This document shows, one piece after another, positions 343 to 33,347 of a stretch of DNA of 40,079 nucleotides; the first letter of the stretch is position 1; each line of letters opens with the position of its first letter. A program made the position numbers and the translations under genes. This DNA comes from Kayfunavirus PDP21P1. The notes under the pieces are model-generated. The model worked only from the letters and a program-made list of their open reading frames with translations, had not been told where the DNA came from and did no database searches. The stretch lies in sequence record OZ035821.1; one strand, written 5' to 3'.

Positions 343-394
343 CACACTACGGGCGGAGACGCTACGTGGATTCTGAGAAATGAGGAGGGCAACT

Positions 395-832
395 ATGCTC
401 GAACTTTTATGTAAAGCAATCCCGTGGCTGGTTGCAGGACTCCTGTTCTGTTCTGGCTACTGGGTGGCAGACAATAAGTGGGAGGCGAAGGTAAACAATG
501 AGTACATCACGAAACTTGAGGCACGAGAGAATCAACGGGCTGCTGTCCAAGGTGAAATCAACAAAGTGTCAGCCGAGTGGCAAGACAAGATGTCCGCGCT
601 GGAAGGCTCTACTGATAGGATTATTGCTGACCTTAACCGTGATAACAAGCGGCTGCGCGTCCGAGTCAACACCTCAGGTCTCACCGAGTCAGATGTCAGT
701 AGATGCTTCCCTAATGGTAGAGTCGAACTACACCCAGAAACTTCTAAAAGTCTTATCCGATTAACTCAGGAGGCAGACCTTAAGGAGAAGGCGCTTCAGG
801 ACACAATAAGGAGGCTCCAAGGTGTTAAGTGA
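395..832 (+). CDS. 18.5: i-spanin (Rz-like), T7 gp18.5 homolog
   Basis: N-terminal transmembrane helix (IPWLVAGLLFCSGYW) and strong similarity to T7 gp18.5 (EGSTDRIIxDLxxDNKRLRVRV). Start moved to ATG 395, which has a GAGGAGG RBS; the track start at 380 lies inside that RBS. Confidence 0.8.
   Translation: MLELLCKAIPWLVAGLLFCSGYWVADNKWEAKVNNEYITKLEARENQRAAVQGEINKVSAEWQDKMSALEGSTDRIIADLNRDNKRLRVRVNTSGLTESDVSRCFPNGRVELHPETSKSLIRLTQEADLKEKALQDTIRRLQGVK
498..764 (+). CDS. 18.7: o-spanin (Rz1-like lipoprotein) embedded in the +1 frame of gene 18.5, T7 gp18.7 homolog
   Basis: Embedded out-of-frame ORF with a signal peptide and lipobox (LTVITSGC). Closely parallels T7 gp18.7 (MSTxRxLR...GCASES...MVSVDxSLMVExN). 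Confidence 0.75.
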   Translation: MSTSRNLRHERINGLLSKVKSTKCQPSGKTRCPRWKALLIGLLLTLTVITSGCASESTPQVSPSQMSVDASLMVESNYTQKLLKVLSD

Positions 833-1259
833 TTACTACAAAGTGGACCCGGCTAGTCCATCCGGTCTGGTCTCCGTTAGGACTGGAAAGCCTGTGGGGA
901 CATTAAGTCGGATGGGATATTGGATAGTACAGACACGAAGTCTAGGCAGTAAGCGGGCCCATCGTGTGATATGGGAACTAACCAATGGTCCTATACCGCA
1001 TGGTATGCAAATAGACCACATCGACAGGAACCCTAGCAATAATACCTTAAGTAACTTACGGCTCGTTACTGCCGCTGAAAACACTTGGAATACTGGTAGC
1101 CATTATGACTCTAAGACAGGAGTGAAGTGCGTTACCCGTCACCAGAATGGTTATAGGATTCAGGTTAAACGCGGGAATGCCTATATGCGAACAACACGTC
1201 CCACTTTAGAGGAGGCTATCGCTGTCCGGGACCTAATGCTGGAGGGACTATATGTCTAA
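822..1259 (+). CDS. HNH homing endonuclease with AP2-like DNA-binding domain
   Basis: Motifs YYKVDPxSPSGLV, [35 protein letters not shown], and a C-terminal GYRIQV...[15 protein letters not shown]2-like segment. GTG start with GGAGG upstream. Absent from the T7 backbone at this position; AT-rich relative to flanks. Confidence 0.75.
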
Positions 1260-3018
1260 GAAAACACCCGCTGAAAGACAGGCAGAAATGGTCCAAAGGA
1301 TGAGGGACGACTTCGTGTTCTTCATCTTCGTTCTCTGGAAAGCACTAAGTCTTCCGGTTCCAACCCGCTGCCAGATAGATATGTGTAAGAAGCTGGCTGC
1401 TGGGGATAATCGCCGCTTCATCCTTCAGGCGTTCCGTGGTATTGGCAAGTCGTTTTTGACCTGTGGCTTTGTGGTCTGGAAGCTATGGAATAACCCAGAC
1501 TTGAAGTTCATGATTGTGTCGGCCTCAAAGGAACGAGCCGATGCGAACTCCATCTTCATCAAGCGAATCATCGACCTCATGCCTCAGCTTCAGGAACTCA
1601 AACCTAAACAGGGGCAGCGAGATGCGGTTATCAGCTTCGACGTGGGACCTGCCAAGCCAGACCACTCACCTTCGGTTAAGTCCGTTGGTATCACTGGTCA
1701 GTTGACTGGTAGTCGTGCTGACATCCTGATTGCCGATGACGTGGAGGTTCCGAACAACTCAGCGACTCAGGCTGCACGAGACCGTCTATCAGAGCTTGTG
1801 AAAGAGTTCGACGCTATCCTGAAGCCGGGAGGTACGATCATCTATCTGGGTACTCCTCAGAACGAGATGACCCTGTACCGTGAGCTGGAAGGTCGTGGGT
1901 ACACCACTACTATCTGGCCCGCTCGTTATCCACGCGACAGGAAGGACTGGCAGTCTTACGGCGACCGTCTGGCTCCTATGCTTCAGGCAGAGCTGGAAGA
2001 GGACCCTGAGTCCTTCTACTGGCGTCCGACTGATGAAGTACGCTTCGATGATACGGACCTGAAGGAACGTGAGCTGTCCTACGGTAAAGCTGGCTTCGCT
2101 CTACAGTTCATGCTTAACCCGAACCTGAGTGATGCCGAGAAGTACCCTCTGAAGCTCCGTGACCTTATCGTAGCCGACTTGGACCCAGCGTCTAGCCCAA
2201 TGGTATACCAATGGCTTCCTAACCCTCAGAACAAGCGTGAGGACGTTCCTAACGTTGGACTCATGGGTGACTCATACCACACGTATCAGACTGTAGGTTC
2301 TGCCTTCAGTTCGTACACCCAGAAGATTCTAGTCATTGACCCTAGTGGTCGTGGTAAGGATGAAACTGGTTATGCGGTACTGTACCAGCTAAACGGCTAC
2401 ATCTTCGCTATGGAAGTTGGCGGTATGCGAGGTGGCTATGAAGACTCTACGCTGGAAGCCTTGGCTAAGATTGGTCGTAAGTGGAAGGTCCACGAATACG
2501 TCATTGAGGGTAACTTCGGTGATGGTATGTACCTTGAGCTATTCAAGCCTGTAGCTTCCCGTATCCATCCTGCGGCTGTAACTGAAGTGAAGAGTAAGGG
2601 TCAGAAAGAACTCCGCATCTGTGACGTTCTGGAGCCTATCATGGGGTCTCACCGACTTATCGTCAACGCTTCTGCTATCGTCCAAGACTACCAGACAGCC
2701 TCTGACAAGGATGGCGTTCGTAACCCTATCTACTCTCTCTTCTACCAGATGACACGTATCTCTCGTGAACGTGGGGCCTTGGCACACGATGACCGACTTG
2801 ATGCGCTGGCTATCGGTGTACAGTTCTTCGTTGAGTCGATGGCTAAGGATGCCAACAAAGGCGAACGTGAAGTCACTGAGGAGTGGCTGGAGGAACAGAT
2901 GGAGAACCCACGTAAAGGCTTCGAGTCCATCCACACTGAGTTCTGGGACAATGGGGTCCGGGTAACTCACGATACGGACGACGAGCTTGGACTAGGGTCC
3001 TACGTTACGTTCCACTAG
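1252..3018 (+). CDS. 19: Terminase large subunit (DNA maturation protein B), T7 gp19 homolog
   Basis: 588 aa. N-terminus [24 protein letters not shown]...[12 protein letters not shown]...[20 protein letters not shown] matches T7 gp19 almost residue for residue; length close to T7 (586 aa). Confidence 0.93.
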
Positions 3019-3474: not shown

Positions 3475-3799
3475 CGCAATCATGGTAACGATTCATGAGC
3501 GGAAGACCTAAGGTCAGTACGTGGATAAAGACTCACTCTACTGACCTTAGCTACTGTAGTCAAGGACTTTAGGTAACACCTTAATAGAAGCTCACCTAGG
3601 GTCATCCTACTTATTGGTCTATCCTAGTGTCGCCTGACCTACGGTCACTCGATGAGTTTGGACCAAAAGTTTGAGACCACATCTCACAGTTCAAGAACCT
3701 CAAGTCTCCCCATAGGCCCTCTTTAAGTCCAGACCAAAGGCCCTACCCGTTACTGCTCCTTGCAGTCACAGACAGTCTATCATAAGGTTGGACTGATGG

Positions 3800-9093: not shown

Positions 9094-9255
9094 ATGTATC
9101 AGAACACTATCAACTTCGAGCGCATCCGTGAACGTCAGCAGACTGAAGGTTACATTCCTAAGGGCCGTAACGCTCATGACTCCGAGGAAACTAAAAGTCG
9201 CAAGTTGAATAAAGTAAGGAGGGATCGCAGTGAGAAGCGTCATTTCTGTCAGTGA
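9094..9255 (+). CDS. gp1.1-like small basic protein
   Basis: 53-aa hand-found ORF. RKLNKVRRDRSEKR resembles the T7 gp1.1 basic segment (RKLNKTKRDRSHKR) as recalled. Overlaps the start of the next ORF by 26 nt. Confidence 0.45.
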   Translation: MYQNTINFERIRERQQTEGYIPKGRNAHDSEETKSRKLNKVRRDRSEKRHFCQ

Positions 9256-9631
9256 TAGATTCTGGAATAAAGTGGACAAGTCTGGAGAATGTTGGGAATG
9301 GACTGCCTCAAGATTTACTAATGGATACGGGCAGTTTACGATAAACGGAAGACCAATAGGGTCTCATAGATTCGCCTACATGGACACCTACGGTCCTATA
9401 CCTAAAGGCTTATTGGTAAGGCATACTTGCGACAACAGACTTTGTTGTAATCCTTCACATTTATTGTTGGGTACACCACAAGATAATATGAACGATAAGG
9501 TCGAACGTGGTAGACAGTACAGGCCTGAGAGGAAGTATGCTGAGGCTATGATGGTGGGCCTCAAGTATAAGGAGGCAAAAGAACTGTTCGGAATAAGCGA
9601 GACACATTTCTATAGGTTGAAAGGAGCATAA
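9230..9631 (+). CDS. HNH homing endonuclease
   Basis: GTG start with TAAGGAGGG RBS. Motifs CWEWT...NGYGQF, GPIPKGLLVRHTCDNRLCCNPSHLLLGTPQDNMNDK. Same family as the ORFs at 18588 and 32898. Confidence 0.75.
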   Translation: MRSVISVSDRFWNKVDKSGECWEWTASRFTNGYGQFTINGRPIGSHRFAYMDTYGPIPKGLLVRHTCDNRLCCNPSHLLLGTPQDNMNDKVERGRQYRPERKYAEAMMVGLKYKEAKELFGISETHFYRLKGA

Positions 9632-12076: not shown

Positions 12077-12775
12077 ATGGCTAAAGAGCAACTGAAGACT
12101 TTCACCACTCCGGTAGCTGGTATCGTTGAGCCTTACGCATGGCTTAACAAAGCAGACACCAAGTTCAACGAGCGTGGTGAGCATAAGGTTAACCTGACAT
12201 TCGACCTGAGCAACCCGAAGGTCCGTAAGATGATTGATGTCTTGCAGAAGATTCACGACGATGCGTATGCGAAAGCACTCGCAGACCACGAGAAGAACCC
12301 ACCTAAGGTTCAGCGTGGCAAGAAGCCTATTGAACCACGAGAAGGCGACATGCCGTGGATTGAGAATGGTGACGGTACTGTTACCCTGAAGTTTAAATGC
12401 TTCGCGTCTTACCTGAAGGATGGTAAGTCAGAGCCTATCGTATTACGGTTCTACGACACCGATGCTAAGTTAATCCGTGACGTCCCGAATATTGGTGCTG
12501 GCTCCAAACTGAAGGTCAAGTTTAAAGTCCTACCGTTCAAGTGGAACGCTGCGACTGGTGCAAGCGTTAAGCTCCAGCTTGAGTCCTGCCTTCTGGTAGA
12601 ACTGAAGGAGTGGAAAGGTGATGGTTCTGGTGGCGATGGTGGCTGGGGTGACGATGAAGACCTCGGTACTGGGTACAAAGCGTCAACCGATGGTGACTTC
12701 GGGTCTGACGACTTCGGTGACGATGGTTCCGAAGGTGGTGACGACTCTGGCTCTGGTGGCGATTACGACTTCTAA
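12077..12775 (+). CDS. 2.5: Single-stranded DNA-binding protein, T7 gp2.5 homolog
   Basis: 232 aa, same length as T7 gp2.5. Conserved core (RGKKPxxPxEGDMP, GDGTxTxKFKC, GSKLKVK, ASVKLQLES) and acidic C-terminal tail ending in DF, as in T7. Confidence 0.93.
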   Translation: MAKEQLKTFTTPVAGIVEPYAWLNKADTKFNERGEHKVNLTFDLSNPKVRKMIDVLQKIHDDAYAKALADHEKNPPKVQRGKKPIEPREGDMPWIENGDGTVTLKFKCFASYLKDGKSEPIVLRFYDTDAKLIRDVPNIGAGSKLKVKFKVLPFKWNAATGASVKLQLESCLLVELKEWKGDGSGGDGGWGDDEDLGTGYKASTDGDFGSDDFGDDGSEGGDDSGSGGDYDF

Positions 12776-13227
12776 TGGCACAATGGTCTGCAAAACGGGG
12801 GCACTCTGTGGGTGCCTACCGCTCTGGACTTGAAGCCAAGAACCAGCAGTGGCTGGAACAGAATGGCGTCAAAGCGGAGTACGAAAGCCATTATATCAAC
12901 TATGTGATTCCAGCTTCCGACCACAAGTACACACCAGATTTTATCCTTCCTAACGGTATCATCGTGGAGACCAAAGGTATCTTCGATAGTGATGACCGTA
13001 AGAAGCACCTTCTGGTACGAGAACAGCACCCAGAGTTAGACATCCGGTTCGTGTTCTCAAGTTCCCGCTCAAAGTTATACAAAGGGTCTCCGACCACGTA
13101 TGGCGCATGGTGCGAAAAGAACGGCTTTAAGTTTGCCGACAAGTTCATCCCGGTTGAGTGGCTGCGAGAGGCGACTGTACATCTGCCTTCAGGCATACTC
13201 ATTCCAAAGAAGAAAGGAGTTAAGTAA
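12775..13227 (+). CDS. 3: Endonuclease I (Holliday junction resolvase), T7 gp3 homolog
   Basis: 150 aa. YVIPASxHxYTPDFxLPNGIxVETKG, DRKKHLLxREQHPELDIRxVFSSSRxKLYKGSPT matches T7 gp3. Confidence 0.93.
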   Translation: MAQWSAKRGHSVGAYRSGLEAKNQQWLEQNGVKAEYESHYINYVIPASDHKYTPDFILPNGIIVETKGIFDSDDRKKHLLVREQHPELDIRFVFSSSRSKLYKGSPTTYGAWCEKNGFKFADKFIPVEWLREATVHLPSGILIPKKKGVK

Positions 13228-13718
13228 TGAGCAAGAAGTTTAAACTGTCAGTAAATACGTGTGGCTGGCCTCGTGGGACCATCGTTACCAAGTGTGAGAA
13301 GGATCCCACACCATATCCGCACATGACCCTAGTTGAGTGCAGCACTCCGGGCACCTACAAAAACGGGTCTAACGGCCACAACACTCAGCCTGATGGTATG
13401 TGGGGAGCATGGGTCCATGACCATGAACTTGAGGAAATAAAGCAGGAAGAGAAACTCACTGGTGTACAGACCACTCAAGTCATGCCAGCTTCTAGCGTAC
13501 CGCCTGTGACTATGAAGCGTGAAGTCCTGACCATCAACAAGGTTGGTGTAGGTCAGACTTTCATCGTCCACGGTAAGCCTGACGAAGTGTACGTGAAGAT
13601 TAGCAACTCTCACGTCTTCAACCATAAGTTGCTCCAGATGCACACGACTGACGCCCAGCGCTTCCAGTCACACCTGAATCTGGTCGTAGTAGAGCTGGTG
13701 GTGTACAATGGTAAGTAA
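13227..13718 (+). CDS. Hypothetical protein, no T7 counterpart at this position
   Basis: 163-aa ORF with AAAGGAG RBS. Start overlaps the gene 3 stop; end overlaps the gene 3.5 start. No recognisable motif. Confidence 0.6.
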   Translation: MSKKFKLSVNTCGWPRGTIVTKCEKDPTPYPHMTLVECSTPGTYKNGSNGHNTQPDGMWGAWVHDHELEEIKQEEKLTGVQTTQVMPASSVPPVTMKREVLTINKVGVGQTFIVHGKPDEVYVKISNSHVFNHKLLQMHTTDAQRFQSHLNLVVVELVVYNGK

Positions 13719-18505: not shown

Positions 18506-19103
18506 TAACATCATGGTGCACATTAAATCTGGTGAACTCGGTGAACTCCTAATGGGACAATACCGAGCCAAGCCATAGGGAGGATGTATGAGAGGCAAGA
18601 AGTTAATTCTTGAGGCCACTGAGACTGGCTGCATAATCCCTACGTCACATAAATTGAATAAGGATGGATACTTCCGAAAGAGGACTAACGGTGTCCTTGA
18701 GATGTATCATAGAACTGTATGGATTAAAGCTAATGGTCCAATACCTGACGGTTTCGAAGTAGACCACAAGTGTCGTAATAGAGCTTGTTGCAACGTCGAA
18801 CATCTACAAGTATTAGACCGGGACTCACACTTAGTCAAGACCAACAAAGAGCGATACGCTGCTAGGAAGCTAGAAGCACGAGACTACTGGGTAGAGACTG
18901 GGTGTACTGGAACGAAGTTAGCCGAAGTATTCAATGTGTCGTTCTCAGCCGCCTGTGGGTGGATTAGAGAGTGGAAGGCGTAGAGACTATCCGAAAGGAG
19001 TAGGGCCGTGGGTGAGATTCCCACGTAACCCGAAGCGCCAGACAGTCACCTCAAAGACTGATGATATAGTCCGACACTTCCAGTAATGGGAGAATACAGA
19101 AAG
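18506..19103 (+). mobile_element. Group I intron interrupting the DNA polymerase gene; carries an HNH endonuclease ORF
   Basis: Stop codon immediately after exon 1. Exon 2 restores DELQIACRTQEI...LDTEGKIGPTWKECH, the conserved T7 gp5 C-terminus, in frame. 5' splice site after U18505 with P1 pairing (exon GUGCAU : intron GUGCAC at 18516-18521, U.G at the junction). Intron ends in G19103. Possible P10 (intron CAUC 18509-18512 : exon 2 GAUG). Confidence 0.7.
18588..18983 (+). CDS. Intron-encoded HNH homing endonuclease
   Basis: 131-aa ORF within the intron, in a different frame from the polymerase, with GGGAGG RBS. Motif NGPIPDGFEVDHKCRNRACCNVEHLQVL; same family as the ORFs at 9230 and 32898. 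Confidence 0.8.
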   Translation: MRGKKLILEATETGCIIPTSHKLNKDGYFRKRTNGVLEMYHRTVWIKANGPIPDGFEVDHKCRNRACCNVEHLQVLDRDSHLVKTNKERYAARKLEARDYWVETGCTGTKLAEVFNVSFSAACGWIREWKA

Positions 19104-29112: not shown

Positions 29113-29135
29113 CCTTAACTATCACTATAGGGACT
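29113..29135 (+). promoter_or_regulatory. Phage RNA polymerase promoter (phi13-like)
   Basis: CCTTAACTATCACTATA^GGGACT. Confidence 0.75.
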
Positions 29136-29164: not shown

Positions 29165-29617
29165 ATGTATATTCGCAAGGCTACGGAACCGGATGTCCAC
29201 TACTTTCTGTGGCATCTTTCAGCAGATGATGTTAATGAGTGCAAAGCAAACTACGGGTCAACCGTTGGTCTCTCTGAAAGACTGCTTAAGCACCTATCTC
29301 CGTCATCTGTGGTTTTAACGAACGGTGTAGGCGAAGTGTTTGCCTATGGTGGAAACCAAGGGGATAACGTATGGTTCTTGACTTCAGGTCTGGTCTATAA
29401 GCTGAGACCTAAAGAGAAGCGAGAGTTCATAAAGCGTATCTCTGAGTACAGGGACTTAATGTTAGACCAATACGGGACCATCTGGAACTACGTGTGGTCA
29501 GGCAATAAGTCTCACATTAAATTCTTGAAGTTGCTGGGAGCTAAGTTCCACCCTGATGTGACGATAAGTCCGGTAACAGGTGAGCGTTTTCAGTTATTCA
29601 CAATCTCTAAGGAGTAA
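29165..29617 (+). CDS. Internal virion protein A (gp13-like)
   Basis: 150-aa ORF with AAGGAG RBS, directly downstream of the phi13-like promoter. Assigned by position and size. Confidence 0.65.
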   Translation: MYIRKATEPDVHYFLWHLSADDVNECKANYGSTVGLSERLLKHLSPSSVVLTNGVGEVFAYGGNQGDNVWFLTSGLVYKLRPKEKREFIKRISEYRDLMLDQYGTIWNYVWSGNKSHIKFLKLLGAKFHPDVTISPVTGERFQLFTISKE

Positions 29618-29619
29618 AG

Positions 29620-30021
29620 ATGACCAAAGTTTGTTTAACTTGTGGTCTGGAGAAACCAATCACTGAGTTTCACAAACAGGCCACCAAGAAAGACCCTGAG
29701 CGCCGAAAACCTCATTGCAGAAGCTGCTGGTCCAAGGTAAGGAGGGATAGAACACCTGAGCATAATAGGCGATACAACCTGAAGAAATTCTACGGAATAA
29801 CACCTGAGGAGTATGATAAAATGCTTCGTGAGCAAGGTGGGACCTGTGCCATTTGTCATGGTACAGAGACTGTAGGGAGACTAGCTGTAGATCACTGCCA
29901 TTCTACAGGTAGGGTTAGGGGTCTGTTATGCACCAACTGCAATCAAGCTATAGGCAAGCTGAAGGATGACTCTCAGTTGCTTAGGAACGCTATCAACTAT
30001 CTGGAGGTGAACCGTGTGTGA
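29620..30021 (+). CDS. Endonuclease VII-like (HNH superfamily) nuclease, inserted between genes 13 and 14
   Basis: Cys/His-rich motif CAICHG...LAVDHCHSTGRVRGLLCTNCNQAIG, characteristic of the T4 endonuclease VII N-terminal zinc-binding nuclease domain. AAGGAG RBS. Confidence 0.75.
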   Translation: MTKVCLTCGLEKPITEFHKQATKKDPERRKPHCRSCWSKVRRDRTPEHNRRYNLKKFYGITPEEYDKMLREQGGTCAICHGTETVGRLAVDHCHSTGRVRGLLCTNCNQAIGKLKDDSQLLRNAINYLEVNRV

Positions 30022-30601
30022 ACCAGTATCCATCGGTTTAGGAATTATGGCTGTAGCCGGGGCCACTATGTCCGCGTCTCAACAAGCCAAGGCTGAGGGT
30101 GCTGCTATCGACGCGCAGAACCGACAGGCTAAGGAGATGATTAAGCAGATGAACTACTCTGACGCCAACCTGAAGATGCAAGAGCGGGACCTTAAGGAGC
30201 AGCAGGTCGCTGAGCTGACCGAGACCACTCTGAATGGTATCCGTAATCAGGGCATGGTCCGCGCAGCGGTAGCCGAGTCTGGCCTAGAAGGTAACTCCAT
30301 GAACCGCATTGAGCGCTCGGTGGAAGGCGACACCGTGAAGGAACGGGCTGGCATCACCGAAAGTTACAACCGCGACTATGCGGCTATCTTCGGGAACCGT
30401 ATCGCCAACATTGAGAACACCAAGTCTGCTATCCGTGGTCAAGGTAAAATCATCAAGACCAGTCCACTGGCCCATGCACTTAATGTTGCTAACGCCGGGA
30501 TGCAAGGTTACGCCGCTGGTAAGTCAATGTCTGGGACTTCAGGCTCTGGTGGTGCTGCACCAATTAGTGCTGCTAAAGGCACGCCTACAGGTCATAGCTA
30601 A
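30014..30601 (+). CDS. 14: Internal virion protein B, T7 gp14 homolog
   Basis: GTG start with GGAGG RBS. N-terminus MCEPVSIG parallels T7 MCWAAAIP; 195 aa against 196 in T7. Confidence 0.85.
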   Translation: MCEPVSIGLGIMAVAGATMSASQQAKAEGAAIDAQNRQAKEMIKQMNYSDANLKMQERDLKEQQVAELTETTLNGIRNQGMVRAAVAESGLEGNSMNRIERSVEGDTVKERAGITESYNRDYAAIFGNRIANIENTKSAIRGQGKIIKTSPLAHALNVANAGMQGYAAGKSMSGTSGSGGAAPISAAKGTPTGHS

Positions 30602-30612
30602 GAGGAGGACTA

Positions 30613-32895
30613 ATGGCTAGTAATATTGAATCAGCTCTGGCTAATCGGACTATGGGTCGTGGCAGAGCGCCTGGTAAAACTATCGCCGTCAACTATCAAG
30701 CAGCCAGCGTTCAGGCTCCAACTGGGGACTCAGGGCTGGCTCGTGCATTAACTAACTTCGTTGAGTCTGGGACAGGATTGTACAAGCAGTTCAAGGACGA
30801 TGAGAAGACCAGAGCTGACGAGCGTTCTAACGAGATTATCCGTAAGCTGACACCTCAGCAAAGACGTGAGGCTATCCAGAACGGCACATTGCTGTATCAG
30901 GATGACCCTTACGCTATGGAAGCACTTCGAGTCAAGACTGGTCGTAATGCTGCCTTTGCTGTAGACGACGAGATTAACGTTAAGATTCAGAACGGTGAGT
31001 TCCGTACACGTCAGGACATGGAAGAGTATCGCCACCAGCGACTTCAGGACGCCGCTAAGTCCTATGCTGAAGAGGCGGGTATTAACCCTACCGACGAGTT
31101 CTTCCAGCGTGGATTCAACGATAACATCACGGACCGAAACATCGCTATCTATGGGTCCTTCAATAAGTATTTCAGTAAGCAGTCTGAAGAGACAGCAATG
31201 TTGAATACTCGTATTGAGATGAACTCATTCCTGAACGATGGCGACCTGATGCGTTCACCTGAGTCAGGTAAGACCTTCATGGCCTACCTTCGTGATGGAC
31301 TGACTACTGCTGCTATCCCTTCAGACCAGAGAGCACGGGAGGTCATTACCCAGACGGTCCGTGACGCAATCCAGAAGTCCGGCGGCTCAAACTTCCTACA
31401 GCAAGTACGGGGCGAGCGTATCACCCTTAATGGTGTTGACGCTACCATCGAAGAGATTGTAGGACCTGACGTCTTCAATGCTGCTATGGTTGAGGCCCAA
31501 GGTACTGAGTATAAACTGGTGGCTAAGTATCAGGAAGACTTGTCGTTAGGCGTTCAGTCTGCGATTCTTCAGGATGACCCAACCATCGGTCTGGCCCAGA
31601 TTCAGAAACTCAAGGAGCAGAACAACCTGCTTCAGCCTGGTGAAGAACTCACGCCTCAGCGTCAGATGCTTATTAATGCCGAAGCCAGCTTACTGGAAGC
31701 GGTCAAGCGTAAGTCTGCTGAACAGGCGAAGGAGAACACTAAGTTAATCCAGACTCAGAACAAGCAACTGGTCATCGACCAAGTGTATCAGCGACGTCTG
31801 GCTGGGGACAACGTGTCCACCAACTATGAGGACCTTCCGGTCTCTGAAGCTACAGGAGAGTTCAAGCGTTCAGACATGAACAACTATGCGTCTGCAAAGC
31901 TACAGCAGATTGACCAGATGGACATCCCTGAGGCTGCTAAGGACGCTCAGAAGGTGGCATTGTTAAGAGCTGACACTAACAACGGTCCGTTCCGTAATGC
32001 ATTCCAGACGCTTACTCAGGACGCTGCTGGTGAGTGGCAAGCTGCGGTCATCCGTGGGCAGTACGACCCAGACAAGATGCAACGCTTCGAATCTCTTCGT
32101 CGTGCCTACACTCAGGACCCTTCAAGTTTCGCTGCTCTGTATCCTGACCAAGCTCAGTTGTTCTCTACGTTCGACCAGATGGACAAGATGGGTCTGGACC
32201 CTCAGACGATGATTGAAGCTGATAAGCAAGCTGCAAGTCAAAGCCGTGAGATGCGCATGGAGTCAGACAAGGCGTGGCAGGAGTTGAAGAACGACTCTAA
32301 GAACACCCAGTTGTCTCGCCTCCCAACGTCTCTGGACTCAAGTGCTCGTAAGGTCTGGGACTCATGGTACTATCGTACAGGTAACGCTGACGCTGCAACT
32401 CAGCAGACTCAACGCTGGCTGAATGAGAACACCGTAACGTTCCAGTCTGAAGGTTCTGACGGTAAGTCCATCGGCATGGTGTCCAAGCACCAGCTTATGG
32501 TCGGGGATAACCCAGAGTCGTGGCAGGTGGGTCGAGACATTATCGACACCGCTCGTAAGCAGCTCATTAAGGCCAACCCTTGGGTAGTGAACTCTCAGTT
32601 GTCAGTTGTTGAACAGAACGGCTCTATCTTCCTCCAAGACGCTACGGGGACTATTCGTATTCGATACGATAAAGAACTTGTAGGTAAACTATACCGCGAA
32701 CAACAGCAGAAGGCACAAGATGCCGCATATGCTCAGGCAGAACGTGACGCTAACAAGCGAGCGCGTATCGTCGGGACTAAAGCTGCTGGTGACAAACGTC
32801 GAGCTGACCGAGAGGCCAACATCGAGAAGCGCGGTGGGATGTACAATGACGTCTCACTGGAGGGTATCGCAAATGTACTAATCGGTAAGGAGTAA
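30613..32895 (+). CDS. 15: Internal virion (core) protein C, T7 gp15 homolog
   Basis: 760 aa. DERSNEIIRKLTPQQRREA...GTLLYQDDPYAMEALRVKTGRNAA matches the gp15 family as recalled. Confidence 0.9.
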   Translation: MASNIESALANRTMGRGRAPGKTIAVNYQAASVQAPTGDSGLARALTNFVESGTGLYKQFKDDEKTRADERSNEIIRKLTPQQRREAIQNGTLLYQDDPYAMEALRVKTGRNAAFAVDDEINVKIQNGEFRTRQDMEEYRHQRLQDAAKSYAEEAGINPTDEFFQRGFNDNITDRNIAIYGSFNKYFSKQSEETAMLNTRIEMNSFLNDGDLMRSPESGKTFMAYLRDGLTTAAIPSDQRAREVITQTVRDAIQKSGGSNFLQQVRGERITLNGVDATIEEIVGPDVFNAAMVEAQGTEYKLVAKYQEDLSLGVQSAILQDDPTIGLAQIQKLKEQNNLLQPGEELTPQRQMLINAEASLLEAVKRKSAEQAKENTKLIQTQNKQLVIDQVYQRRLAGDNVSTNYEDLPVSEATGEFKRSDMNNYASAKLQQIDQMDIPEAAKDAQKVALLRADTNNGPFRNAFQTLTQDAAGEWQAAVIRGQYDPDKMQRFESLRRAYTQDPSSFAALYPDQAQLFSTFDQMDKMGLDPQTMIEADKQAASQSREMRMESDKAWQELKNDSKNTQLSRLPTSLDSSARKVWDSWYYRTGNADAATQQTQRWLNENTVTFQSEGSDGKSIGMVSKHQLMVGDNPESWQVGRDIIDTARKQLIKANPWVVNSQLSVVEQNGSIFLQDATGTIRIRYDKELVGKLYREQQQKAQDAAYAQAERDANKRARIVGTKAAGDKRRADREANIEKRGGMYNDVSLEGIANVLIGKE

Positions 32896-32897
32896 AC

Positions 32898-33347
32898 ATG
32901 AAGAACGGGACAGCCAGTGAGAGACTGGCAGAACTGTCAGTAGCTGAAGAGTCTGGCTGTATCCGATTCACAGGCCACTTAGACGGAGAAGGATACGGAA
33001 GGATAATGGTGGCTAGGGTTAAGTATATGGCACATCGTCTCTCCTACTCCATAAATAAGGGGCCAATACCAGATGGCTATGTTGTTAGGCATAAATGTGA
33101 TAATCCATCATGCATAAATCCTGAACACCTTGAAGTAGGAACGCAGGCTGACAACATTGCAGATAAGGTATCCAGAGGCCGACAGGCAAGAGGTAGTGGA
33201 GCAGGCAGAGCTATACTGACAGAGGAATCTGTTAGGGAAATACGCTCCAGTCCATTAAAAGTATCTGAGCTTTCCACCTTATACGGGGTAAGCGTCGTTT
33301 CCATACGAAATATATTGAGGAGAAAGACATGGCAACACGTGGTGTAA
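32898..33347 (+). CDS. HNH homing endonuclease inserted between genes 15 and 16
   Basis: CIRFTGHLDGEGYGRI, GPIPDGYVVRHKCDNPSCINPEHLEVGTQADNIADKVSRGRQ; same family as 9230 and 18588. AAGGAG RBS; AT-rich codon usage. Confidence 0.8.
   Translation: MKNGTASERLAELSVAEESGCIRFTGHLDGEGYGRIMVARVKYMAHRLSYSINKGPIPDGYVVRHKCDNPSCINPEHLEVGTQADNIADKVSRGRQARGSGAGRAILTEESVREIRSSPLKVSELSTLYGVSVVSIRNILRRKTWQHVV

Follow-up and report, generated by a model that had tools for sequence, protein, structure and literature searches.

Gene 13.5 lies between internal virion protein genes 13 and 14

We examined an open reading frame at positions 29620..30021 (+ strand) of the window, by which we mean the whole 40,079-nucleotide stretch of DNA analyzed here, from the K1F-like phage Kayfunavirus PDP21P1 (OZ035821.1). 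In the ORF list it has an ATG start, 133 amino acids and a TGA stop, and it is an intact copy of gene 13.5, a gene already annotated in T7-like phages. The initial annotation had described a frame with these exact ends and a CAICHG motif (C76, C79), and both are present, together with the longer motif that it quoted, VDHCHSTGRVRGLLCTNCN (D91, H92, H94, R100, C104, C107, N108). It had also placed the gene between genes 13 and 14, which agrees with profile matches for the left neighbor, gene 13 (internal virion protein A; 29165..29617, + strand; PF11090, E 6.5e-41), and the right neighbor, gene 14 (internal virion protein B; 30014..30601, + strand; PF24072, E 1.5e-46). The frame for gp15 follows at 30613..32895 (ORF list and Pfam).

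Upstream of gene 13, a 23-mer at 29113..29135 (+ strand), CCTTAACTATCACTATAGGGACT, matches letter for letter the phi13 annotated in EcoDS1, a phage RNA-polymerase promoter, and phi13 is the probable source of a late transcript that would include 13.5. No sigma-70-like promoter or terminator was found on the + strand between phi13 and 13.5. A promoter or terminator of the gene's own was also rejected, since + strand signals around 13.5 do not rise above shuffled expectation. Direct reading and alignments identify a Shine-Dalgarno sequence, AAGGAG, 5 nt ahead of the 13.5 ATG (29609..29614, + strand); in phages that lack the gene, the same AAGGAG serves gene 14. A GGAGG within the 3' end of 13.5 (30003..30007, + strand), 6 nt ahead of the gene 14 GTG, is kept in all EcoDS1-type alleles and may function as a replacement gene 14 ribosome-binding site brought in with the insert. 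Certain homing endonuclease genes of T4 have a hairpin that sequesters the ribosome-binding site. We found no such hairpin at the 13.5 start (z -0.38) or at the gene 14 start (z +1.16).

Gene 13.5 overlaps gene 14 by 8 nt, GTGTGTGA (30014..30021, + strand), and gene 14 codons 2-3 (TGT GAA) supply its TGA stop; the corresponding K1F codons, TGC GAG, give no stop in the 13.5 frame. Gene 14 starts with GTG in the window and in L040, and with ATG in EcoDS1, in TH20 and in the empty-site phages that were read; several carriers have GTG or ATT instead of ATG. The gene 13 stop is TAA here, and in K1F and vB_EcoP_F, where the site is empty, the annotated gene 13 overlaps gene 14 by 16 nt.

The 13.5 protein carries an endonuclease VII motif and resembles F-CphI

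The reading of the product as an endonuclease VII-family nuclease is borne out by profile, sequence and fold searches. PF02945 (Endonuclease_7) matches residues 54-129 of gp13.5 over profile positions 4-81 of 82 (E 5e-28; score 97.3 bits, Pfam cutoff 23.6 bits), and PHROG 2633, 'endonuclease VII', matches with E 9e-45; these two values exclude a chance match. The gp13.5 of EcoDS1 (YP_002003777 / ACF15821), likewise of 133 aa, is 94% identical in amino acids and 89.6% in nucleotides and has the same 13/14 site and the same gene 14 overlap, whereas its gene 14 starts with ATG and its gene 13 is of another type (66% aa identity). The versions in phiYeO3-12 (NP_072072) and FE44, also Endonuclease_7 proteins, are 45-53% identical, and further counterparts occur in vB_YenP_AP5 and many Klebsiella and Yersinia T7-like phages.

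BLASTP aligns gp13.5 over its full length with F-CphI (42% identity, E 2e-31, residues 1-129 against 8-139), an experimentally characterised, free-standing homing endonuclease of cyanophage S-PM2 around which the 'DHHRN' family was proposed (PMC6083498). Fang et al. 2018 list the EcoDS1 and phiYeO3-12 gp13.5 in their Table S1 with a C-terminal motif ('C'), and the FE44 gene 13.5 protein is also in their F-CphI family list (PMC6083498). Our sequence comparisons would place gp13.5 in the F-CphI-like 'endonuclease clade' of homing and restriction enzymes and not in the 'resolvase clade'. Database annotations name it 'recombination endonuclease VII'.

The protein has the same two-part build as F-CphI, with an N-terminal CxxC...CxxC and a C-terminal Endo VII motif. 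The ~50 N-terminal residues (29620..29769, + strand) contain a putative zinc ribbon whose cysteines (C5, C8, C33, C36) are invariant in all 13.5 alleles and F-CphI, and residues 76-~125 of Hpy99I align with this region. In the AF2 model (pLDDT 91.7 for the whole protein), the N-terminal block forms strands E2-4, E11-13, E17-19 and E29-33 at pLDDT 81-93. This putative zinc ribbon is probably a DNA-binding module, and would bind both zinc and DNA.

The predicted catalytic core, an Endonuclease_7 (beta-beta-alpha-metal) domain at residues 54-129 (29779..30006, + strand; Pfam), has by alignment the zinc ligands C76, C79, C104 and C107 and the catalytic residues D91, H92, H94, R100 and N108. These correspond to C23/C26, C58/C61 and D40/H41/H43/R54/N62 of T4 Endo VII and are invariant or at least 90% conserved in a 57-sequence alignment. 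Family membership is defined by D-H-x-H...R...N flanked by CX2-4C and CX2C zinc ligands (PMC6083498), and gp13.5 contains this arrangement with both zinc pairs. F-CphI residues D101, H102, R110 and N118, which were probed by mutagenesis (PMC6083498), all have conserved counterparts in gp13.5. The model shows the beta-beta-alpha-metal fold as strands E89-92 and E99-103 followed by helix H105-113.

Foldseek returns Hpy99I and T4 Endo VII as the top matches to this model (probability 1.00). Hpy99I (PDB 3fc3), a beta-beta-alpha-Me type II restriction endonuclease that cuts duplex DNA sequence-specifically, is the best solved-structure match (sequence E 3.5e-8, query 3-129 against chain 76-196; fold E 3.6e-6). 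Its match spans the N-terminal cysteine motif as well as the catalytic core, whereas that of T4 Endo VII covers the core only. Hpy99I differs in having an extra ~75-residue N-terminal domain, and, like Hpy99I, 12 of 13 Helicobacter homologues adjoin a methylase (Fang et al., PMC6083498), whereas gene 13.5 has no associated methylase. T4 endonuclease VII (gp49; PDB 1en7, 1e7d, 2qnc, 2qnf), a Holliday-junction resolvase, has the same zinc-stabilised motif and core fold (rmsd 2.9-3.7 over 86-87 columns), but residues 62-129 of gp13.5 align with only 9-86 of the 157 residues of gp49, short of a full-length match. In gp49 the motif is N-terminal and a ~70-residue C-terminal region follows; gp13.5 lacks this region and has the N-terminal cysteine motif instead.

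The initial annotation had assigned gp13.5 to a different nuclease class from an HNH trio in the same DNA. The families are indeed distinct, and gp13.5 gives no HNH-family Pfam match at E <= 0.01; however, Endo VII-motif and HNH enzymes form separate families within one beta-beta-alpha-metal superfamily (PMC6083498), so the distinction does not extend to that level. The trio is in fact a quartet, as Pfam identifies four HNH_3 ORFs elsewhere in the window (822..1259, 9230..9631, 18588..18983 and 32898..33347). The same genome also encodes T7 endonuclease I (PF05367, Phage_endo_I, E 1.1e-81; 12775..13227).

Gene 13.5 is a precise and sporadic insertion at a recurrently occupied site

Alignments, including a 15-sequence MAFFT alignment, confirm that the gene is an insert: a segment of exactly 394 bp (29620..30013, + strand) is missing from K1F, MT1B1P3, vB_EcoP_F, ST31 and LM33P1, and the flanks of such relatives are otherwise colinear with the window. 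The empty site reads AAGGAGGACGT followed directly by ATGTG(C/T)GA. Carriage among relatives is ~8%: this allele is present in ~7 of 221 related GenBank records, other alleles occupy the same junction in ~10 further GenBank records, and 22 of 24 IMG/VR loci are empty. The gene is polymorphic even within a species, with 101136BS1 carrying it and LM33P1 lacking it. The window and contig L041 form a sub-allele that differs from the EcoDS1 group by ~10% at the nucleotide level. In ZG49 we found a truncated remnant, which indicates that 13.5 is dispensable.

The location had been called unusual for a nuclease. However, the junction holds an annotated gene 13.5 in three genera, Kayfunavirus, Teetrevirus and Berlinvirus, and it is a recurrently occupied, long-annotated nuclease site. 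A 397-bp indel in a Hafnia phage Ca population (PMC8861465), considered as a possible further case, is instead the HNH gene that lies between the lysis genes and that of the large terminase subunit.

Gene 13.5 and its flanks have different histories

We compared amino acid identities of gp13, gp13.5 and gp14, in that order, and obtained 95, 42 and 95% against Penshu1, 66, 94 and 94% against EcoDS1, and 47, 53 and 43% against phiYeO3-12, showing that the history of 13.5 is decoupled from that of its flanking genes. A cassette of 13.5 and the first ~350 nt of gene 14 (29629..30363, + strand) is near-identical to L041, with 2 differences in 735 nt, whereas the window and L041 differ at 224 of 4537 nt beyond the interval 29536..30400 (Fisher p 2e-6 for this interval). 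As the L041 backbone is ~5% diverged from that of the window, the 99%-identical gene in a different backbone indicates recent transfer. Against the closest relative without the gene, the cassette stretch diverges more than any other part, with 10-18 substitutions per 100 nt versus ~1-5 elsewhere, and other genome pairs have recombination breakpoints at the ends of the gene.

The dN/dS of 13.5 is 0.08-0.10 against EcoDS1, 101136BS1 and yong1 and 0.08-0.20 overall; the value of ~0.09, at dS ~0.45, indicates that the protein is maintained. We considered a carrier-exclusive haplotype at 30181..30400 and rejected it, since the empty L019, L020 and L022 are 93% identical there. Kayfunavirus genomes are generally mosaic. 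Given this mosaicism and the presence of the haplotype in genomes without the gene, the patchwork near 13.5 is consistent with homing but is not proof of it.

The intact 13/14 junction is a candidate target

The candidate target suggested by these comparisons is the intact 13/14 junction together with the first ~35 nt of gene 14 (30014..30050). In DNA lacking 13.5, the intact junction reads AAGGAGGACGT joined to ATGTGCGAGCCAGTAAGTATCGG, a candidate cut neighborhood. Ten substitutions cluster at 30025..30046 when 101136BS1 or yong1 is compared with the closest relatives without the gene. We evaluated an 'immune' variant (Ser AGT to TCC plus nearby changes, gene 14 codons 4-11), but its association with carriage is imperfect: VIPECLMC06 carries 13.5 yet has the AGT typical of phages without it, and L025 and L026 are empty yet have the carrier-type TCC. 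Because of these exceptions, the polymorphism stays a candidate only. Tract asymmetry was also considered as a guide to the cleavage site and rejected. The tract shared by the window and L041 runs to the right and that of EcoDS1 and TH20 to the left, and these opposite directions allow no direction to be inferred.

Gene 13.5 is likely a free-standing homing endonuclease gene

We consider it likely that gene 13.5 encodes a free-standing homing endonuclease from the F-CphI/Endo VII-motif ('DHHRN') family. The initial annotation had raised this reading tentatively, and it is the best supported one, given the F-CphI homology, the exact indel, the decoupled history, the ZG49 remnant and the presence of endonuclease I. 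Gene 13.5 shows two features expected of a homing gene, a sporadic and precise insertion adjoining a conserved gene and a flank-incongruent history with lateral transfer. Both F-CphI and gp13.5 are encoded by free-standing genes adjoining the presumed target gene. F-CphI nicks and then linearises its substrate, and its target is the psbA intron-insertion site of intron-less cyanophages, whereas gp13.5 would presumably act on the 13/14 junction or on gene 14 in T7-like coliphages, with no intron involved.

Expression, site-specific cleavage, target location and homing of gp13.5, which we infer, would proceed as follows. The gene would be transcribed late from phi13 together with virion genes 13-16, and its translation would rely on the AAGGAG that gene 14 uses where the insert is absent. 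The protein, probably acting as a dimer, would cut a co-infecting genome that lacks 13.5 at the intact 13/14 junction, close to it, or in the first gene 14 codons. Repair by recombination with the carrier genome would then copy the 394-bp gene along with flanks of variable length, while the carrier would escape cutting, its target site having been split or altered by the insert.

In the T-even phages, the Seg enzymes are GIY-YIG endonucleases and MobE is an HNH enzyme. SegF, SegG and MobE are likewise free-standing and intergenic between conserved genes (PMC6083498, PMC2988022), and they resemble 13.5 in their patchy distribution and in the co-transfer of flanking sequence. Experiments have demonstrated both cleavage and marker exclusion by these enzymes, whereas literature searches returned no cleavage or homing experiment on any gp13.5.

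The nuclease could instead be kept for the benefit of the phage and not be self-propagating, serving in competitor exclusion, in degradation of host or plasmid DNA, or in tuning of gene 14 translation. Strong purifying selection (dN/dS 0.08-0.20) and the constant position in Kayfunavirus, Teetrevirus and Berlinvirus fit this explanation, as does the swap of the gene 14 ribosome-binding site, accompanied in several phages by that of the start codon; attack on the host was also speculated by the Hafnia phage Ca authors (PMC8861465). We nevertheless regard it as unlikely, as a frequency of ~8% with presence and absence within one species argues against a strong general benefit, the truncated ZG49 copy marks the gene as dispensable, and the family gives no sign of a non-specific nuclease, F-CphI and Hpy99I being sequence-specific. 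Moreover, exclusion by cutting competitor DNA is the same event as homing and is therefore not a clean alternative.

Co-option, in which 13.5 would cut gene 14 of co-infecting relatives (localised marker exclusion) or modulate gp14 dosage, also appears rather improbable to us. The fixed position in the virion-core operon of three genera, the purifying selection and the capture of both the ribosome-binding site and the start codon of gene 14 fit it. If it were true, balancing selection would keep both carriers and non-carriers, rather than a simple cycle of invasion and decay.

It is very unlikely that gp13.5 is a structure-specific enzyme that, like T4 gp49, resolves Holliday junctions or debranches DNA, clearing branched DNA before packaging, with late expression reflecting this role. 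Such a function would agree with the catalytic motif and core fold common to the two proteins, with the label 'recombination endonuclease VII' and with the probable location of 13.5 on a late transcript; T4 gene 49 likewise rides a late transcript. However, T4 Endo VII aligns over a 68-87-residue core only, its C-terminal half (~87-157) is without counterpart, and the gp13.5 motif is C-terminal and not N-terminal. gp13.5 resembles Hpy99I and F-CphI more closely than T4 gp49, and Fang et al. set such proteins apart from the resolvase clade, arguing that podovirus members that also have endonuclease I are not resolvases (PMC6083498). Because this phage encodes T7 endonuclease I, the resolvase of the T7 group, 13.5 is not needed in that role, and since the great majority of close relatives do without 13.5, packaging cannot depend on it. 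A terminase-associated role as for HK97 gp74 was judged improbable as well, since 13.5 is not beside the terminase genes and is absent from most relatives.

Homing endonuclease genes commonly decay after fixation, and a decayed copy exists in ZG49, but we find it hardly credible that the gene in the window is an inactive relic of a formerly mobile endonuclease gene, now only carried along, as its ORF is intact, none of the catalytic and zinc residues is missing, dN/dS is ~0.09 at dS ~0.45, and L041 has a 99%-identical copy in another backbone.

Significance

Gene 13.5 is thus real and apparently mobile, but ordinary. It is already known from the phiYeO3-12 and EcoDS1 reference records, where it is annotated, and a 2018 paper put its family forward as one of homing endonucleases (PMC6083498), so that its discovery value is small. 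What the comparative data add is a specific stretch in which experiments can look for the target, namely the intact 13/14 junction with the opening ~35 nt of gene 14. With several unrelated alleles and one decayed copy at a single site, the locus also offers a convenient natural setting in which to study how homing endonucleases turn over in T7-like phages. For therapy and engineering with Kayfunavirus, the 13.5 locus and the four HNH genes should be expected to drive localised recombination in mixed infections.

Gene 13.5 occupies a recurrent site in T7-like phages

The window holds the complete genome of a phage of the genus Kayfunavirus (K1F-like, T7 group), with MT1B1P3, K1F and vB_EcoP_F as its nearest GenBank relatives (~94% identity over ~88% of a 25-kb query). 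Relative to K1F it is circularly permuted: it starts among the genes for lysis and terminase, with position 1 of K1F aligning near window position 3682. A T7-type endonuclease I is encoded at 12775..13227 (PF05367, E 1.1e-81). Between this gene (gene 3) and the amidase/lysozyme gene (gene 3.5) lies a 163-aa ORF (13227..13718, + strand) without a Pfam match, whose only hit is PHROG 16385 (E 3e-92), a family of unknown function.

The ORF at 29620..30021 (+ strand; 133 aa, from an ATG start to a TGA stop) contains the Cys/His motifs quoted in the initial annotation and is indeed inserted between the genes for gp13 (29165..29617; PF11090, E 6.5e-41) and gp14 (30014..30601; PF24072, E 1.5e-46), upstream of gp15 (30613..32895). 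It is already known as gene 13.5. EcoDS1 has a "gene 13.5, endonuclease VII" in the same place, with 89.6% nucleotide and 94% amino acid identity to the window gene, and the gene is likewise annotated between genes 13 and 14 in phiYeO3-12 (Teetrevirus), there as "homologous to bacteriophage T4 endonuclease VII", and in FE44 (Berlinvirus). The gene is also found in vB_YenP_AP5 and in many T7-like phages of Klebsiella and Yersinia, in which the match overlaps "internal virion protein A"; every version checked is an Endonuclease_7 protein. Since it is annotated at one place in several T7-like phages, the junction, at first considered an unusual location for a nuclease, is a recurrent one. We found no biochemical test of any gp13.5 in the literature searched.

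gp13.5 is a two-part endonuclease VII-type protein

Profile searches bear out the proposed endonuclease VII-type domain: residues 54-129 match Pfam Endonuclease_7 (PF02945; E 5e-28, 97 bits, cutoff 23.6 bits), and residues 2-131 match "endonuclease VII" families in PHROGs (top E 9e-45). Of the solved structures, Hpy99I, a type II restriction enzyme (3fc3; E 3.5e-8), matches best in sequence, in an alignment that spans residues 3-129 and thus includes the N-terminal part of gp13.5; T4 endonuclease VII is next (E 2e-4, residues 62-129 only). In the sequence alignment with the T4 enzyme, the Zn ligand pair C76/C79 corresponds to C23/C26, D91/H92/H94 to D40/H41/H43, R100 to R54, C104/C107 to C58/C61, and N108 to N62. 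The motif-defining residue set of Fang et al. 2018 (PMC6083498) is complete in gp13.5, and across 57 aligned database homologues each motif position is either invariant or conserved in at least 90%. An AlphaFold2 model built from the 57-sequence alignment is confident (mean pLDDT 91.7). In Foldseek searches of the PDB with this model, Hpy99I alone scores E <= 0.001; T4 endonuclease VII comes next, with E 3e-3 to 1.2e-2 and probability 1.00 (86-87 columns superposed at rmsd 2.9-3.7 Å), and HNH proteins (Cap5, McrA, Cas9-type HNH) rank below it as weak matches only. The catalytic core (54-129) is preceded by a CxxC...CxxC array (C5, C8, C33, C36) within residues 1-50, and these four cysteines are invariant in every aligned gene-13.5 allele and in F-CphI. 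T4 endonuclease VII, in contrast, has the reverse layout, an N-terminal motif followed by ~70 residues without counterpart in gp13.5.

By sequence, F-CphI of cyanophage S-PM2 is the closest characterised relative (42% identity, E 2e-31; F-CphI residues 8-139 against gp13.5 residues 1-129 in direct comparison). It is a free-standing homing endonuclease that nicks the two strands in turn, and its residues D101, H102, R110 and N118, which mutagenesis showed to matter for cleavage or binding (PMC6083498), correspond to gp13.5 D91, H92, R100 and N108. Fang et al. proposed a "DHHRN" family from F-CphI and divided endonuclease VII-motif proteins into a resolvase clade with an N-terminal motif, including T4 gp49, and an endonuclease clade with a C-terminal motif, to which F-CphI, Hpy99I and intron-encoded enzymes belong; EcoDS1 gp13.5 (ACF15821) and phiYeO3-12 gp13.5 (NP_072072) are entered in their Table S1, both with a C-terminal motif (PMC6083498).

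The distinction initially drawn between this nuclease class and an HNH trio holds at the family level, as gp13.5 has no HNH profile match and the window's other endonuclease genes are all HNH_3, but not at superfamily level, where both count as beta-beta-alpha-metal proteins. The HNH_3 (PF13392) ORFs number four rather than three: 822..1259 (+), 9230..9631, 18588..18983 and 32898..33347. The extra ORF, 822..1259 (GTG start, 145 aa, E 6.7e-21), lies between the genes for an Rz-like spanin (380..832) and the large terminase subunit (1252..3018) and overlaps both. At this same lysin/large terminase subunit junction, Hafnia phage Ca has a 397-bp HNH gene whose presence or absence varies inside one laboratory population and is correlated with the size of plaques (PMC8861465).

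Gene 13.5 is a precise and patchily distributed insert

A 1.7-kb query around 13.5 matched 221 phage records, only 7 of which cover the query in full; most match it as two separate pieces that span 1307 rather than 1701 bp. Comparison of the junction with relatives lacking the insert gave an exact 394-bp difference (29620..30013). The empty site reads AAGGAGGACGT followed by ATGTG(C/T)GA, and gene 13 there extends into gene 14. Sensitive DNA searches detected the window's EcoDS1-type allele in 7 phages only, a Penshu1-type allele in 4 further phages, and a third, Ro45lw-type allele in a few others. In an independent sample, 22 of 24 Kayfunavirus loci in IMG/VR are empty. Of two phages filed under one species, LM33P1 lacks 13.5 and 101136BS1 carries it.

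The insert uses the AAGGAG at 29609..29614, 5 nt 5' of the 13.5 ATG, which serves gene 14 in empty-site phages, and it brings in a new GGAGG (30003..30007), 6 nt 5' of the gene 14 start, which is GTG in the window. The TGA stop of 13.5 comes from gene 14 codons 2-3 (TGT GAA in the window, TGC GAG in K1F). At Penshu1- and Ro45lw-type inserts (Penshu1, L003; Ro45lw, L007; ZG49, L008), the conserved gene 14 start (M-C-E-P...) is ATT rather than ATG or GTG, and annotators have shifted the start to a downstream ATG; such inserts may thus affect either the initiation or the N-terminus of gp14. The annotated EcoDS1 promoter phi13 is identical base for base at 29113..29135, and searches around 13.5 revealed no promoter, terminator or RBS-masking hairpin specific to it. 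Expression is probably from the late phi13 transcript.

Gene 13.5 has a history separate from its neighbours

Amino acid identities of gp13, gp13.5 and gp14 are 95, 42 and 95% to Penshu1, 66, 94 and 94% to EcoDS1, and 47, 53 and 43% to phiYeO3-12, so that the window allele is nearer that of another genus than another allele of its own. We count this decoupling as evidence suggesting independent movement. Divergence from vB_EcoP_F, the closest relative lacking 13.5, points the same way in peaking beside the gene: genes 12 and 13 mostly show 0-4 substitutions per 100 nt (maximum 8), 29500-29600 shows 12, and 30014-30400 shows 15, 10, 18 and 17, then 0. L041, a contig of 40 kb from one public sequencing run, holds a 99%-identical copy of 13.5 and differs from the window at 2 of 735 positions in 29629..30363 and at ~5% of the other 4.5 kb compared, indicating one cassette in two different backbones. 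Between EcoDS1 and TH20 there is a single difference in 29457..30037, and differences are dense from 30038 on; we likewise read breakpoints at the ends of 13.5 as supporting independent movement.

Within gene 14, 30181..30400 (codons ~57-129) is a distinct haplotype with 89-93% identity to Penshu1, Ro45lw, VIPECLMC06 and IMG/VR loci L019, L020, L022 and L023, and only 81-85% to most other Kayfunavirus loci compared, which shows local mosaicism. In ZG49, a ~320-bp deletion (about 1900..2230 of its locus) has taken out 42 codons at the end of gene 13 and ~64 at the start of a Penshu1-type 13.5, of which the 3' half alone is left; this catalytic half stands in frame immediately after a stop codon. 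We count this decayed copy, too, as evidence for independent movement. Either the record is misassembled, or gp13 can do without its C-terminus.

Between the window allele and those of EcoDS1, 101136BS1 and yong1, dN/dS is 0.08-0.10 (dS ~0.45), and 0.09-0.20 within that group, indicating purifying selection.

Proposed homing into the 13/14 junction

Family membership, the conserved active site, the indel, patchy distribution, decoupled histories, cassette sharing and selection support the initial suggestion of a free-standing homing endonuclease. Alternatively, 13.5 could be a beneficial nuclease acting in competitor exclusion or gp14 tuning, a less probable reading whose mechanism overlaps with homing. 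A T4-type resolvase role is unlikely: it is not needed in a genome encoding endonuclease I, most relatives lack 13.5, and the architecture is unlike that of T4 endonuclease VII; Fang et al. likewise considered endonuclease-clade podovirus proteins probably not resolvases, since these phages all also encode T7 endonuclease I (PMC6083498). The intact motif, low dN/dS and recent transfer contradict the reading as an inactive relic.

For a homing endonuclease, the best candidate target would be the 13/14 junction with the first ~35 nt of gene 14. In 101136BS1 and yong1, 10 substitutions relative to their nearest relatives lacking 13.5 cluster at 30025..30046. Because variants in this region associate imperfectly with 13.5 carriage, and shared tracts extend rightward in window/L041 and leftward in EcoDS1/TH20, the cut site cannot be placed. 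In two IMG/VR contigs (L025, 3300045988_000139; L026, 3300045988_000036; positions 1470..1545), the junction is empty and gene 14 opens with ~30 nt of the type that elsewhere stands beside the EcoDS1-type gene (…CCAGTATCCATCGGTCTAGGAGT…); these loci may have lost the gene precisely, or may be empty sites that resist cleavage.

We propose that 13.5 is a free-standing homing endonuclease gene whose product, made late in infection, would cut co-infecting relatives at an intact 13/14 junction in a sequence-specific manner, and that recombinational repair would then copy 13.5, with variable flanking tracts, into the cut relatives.
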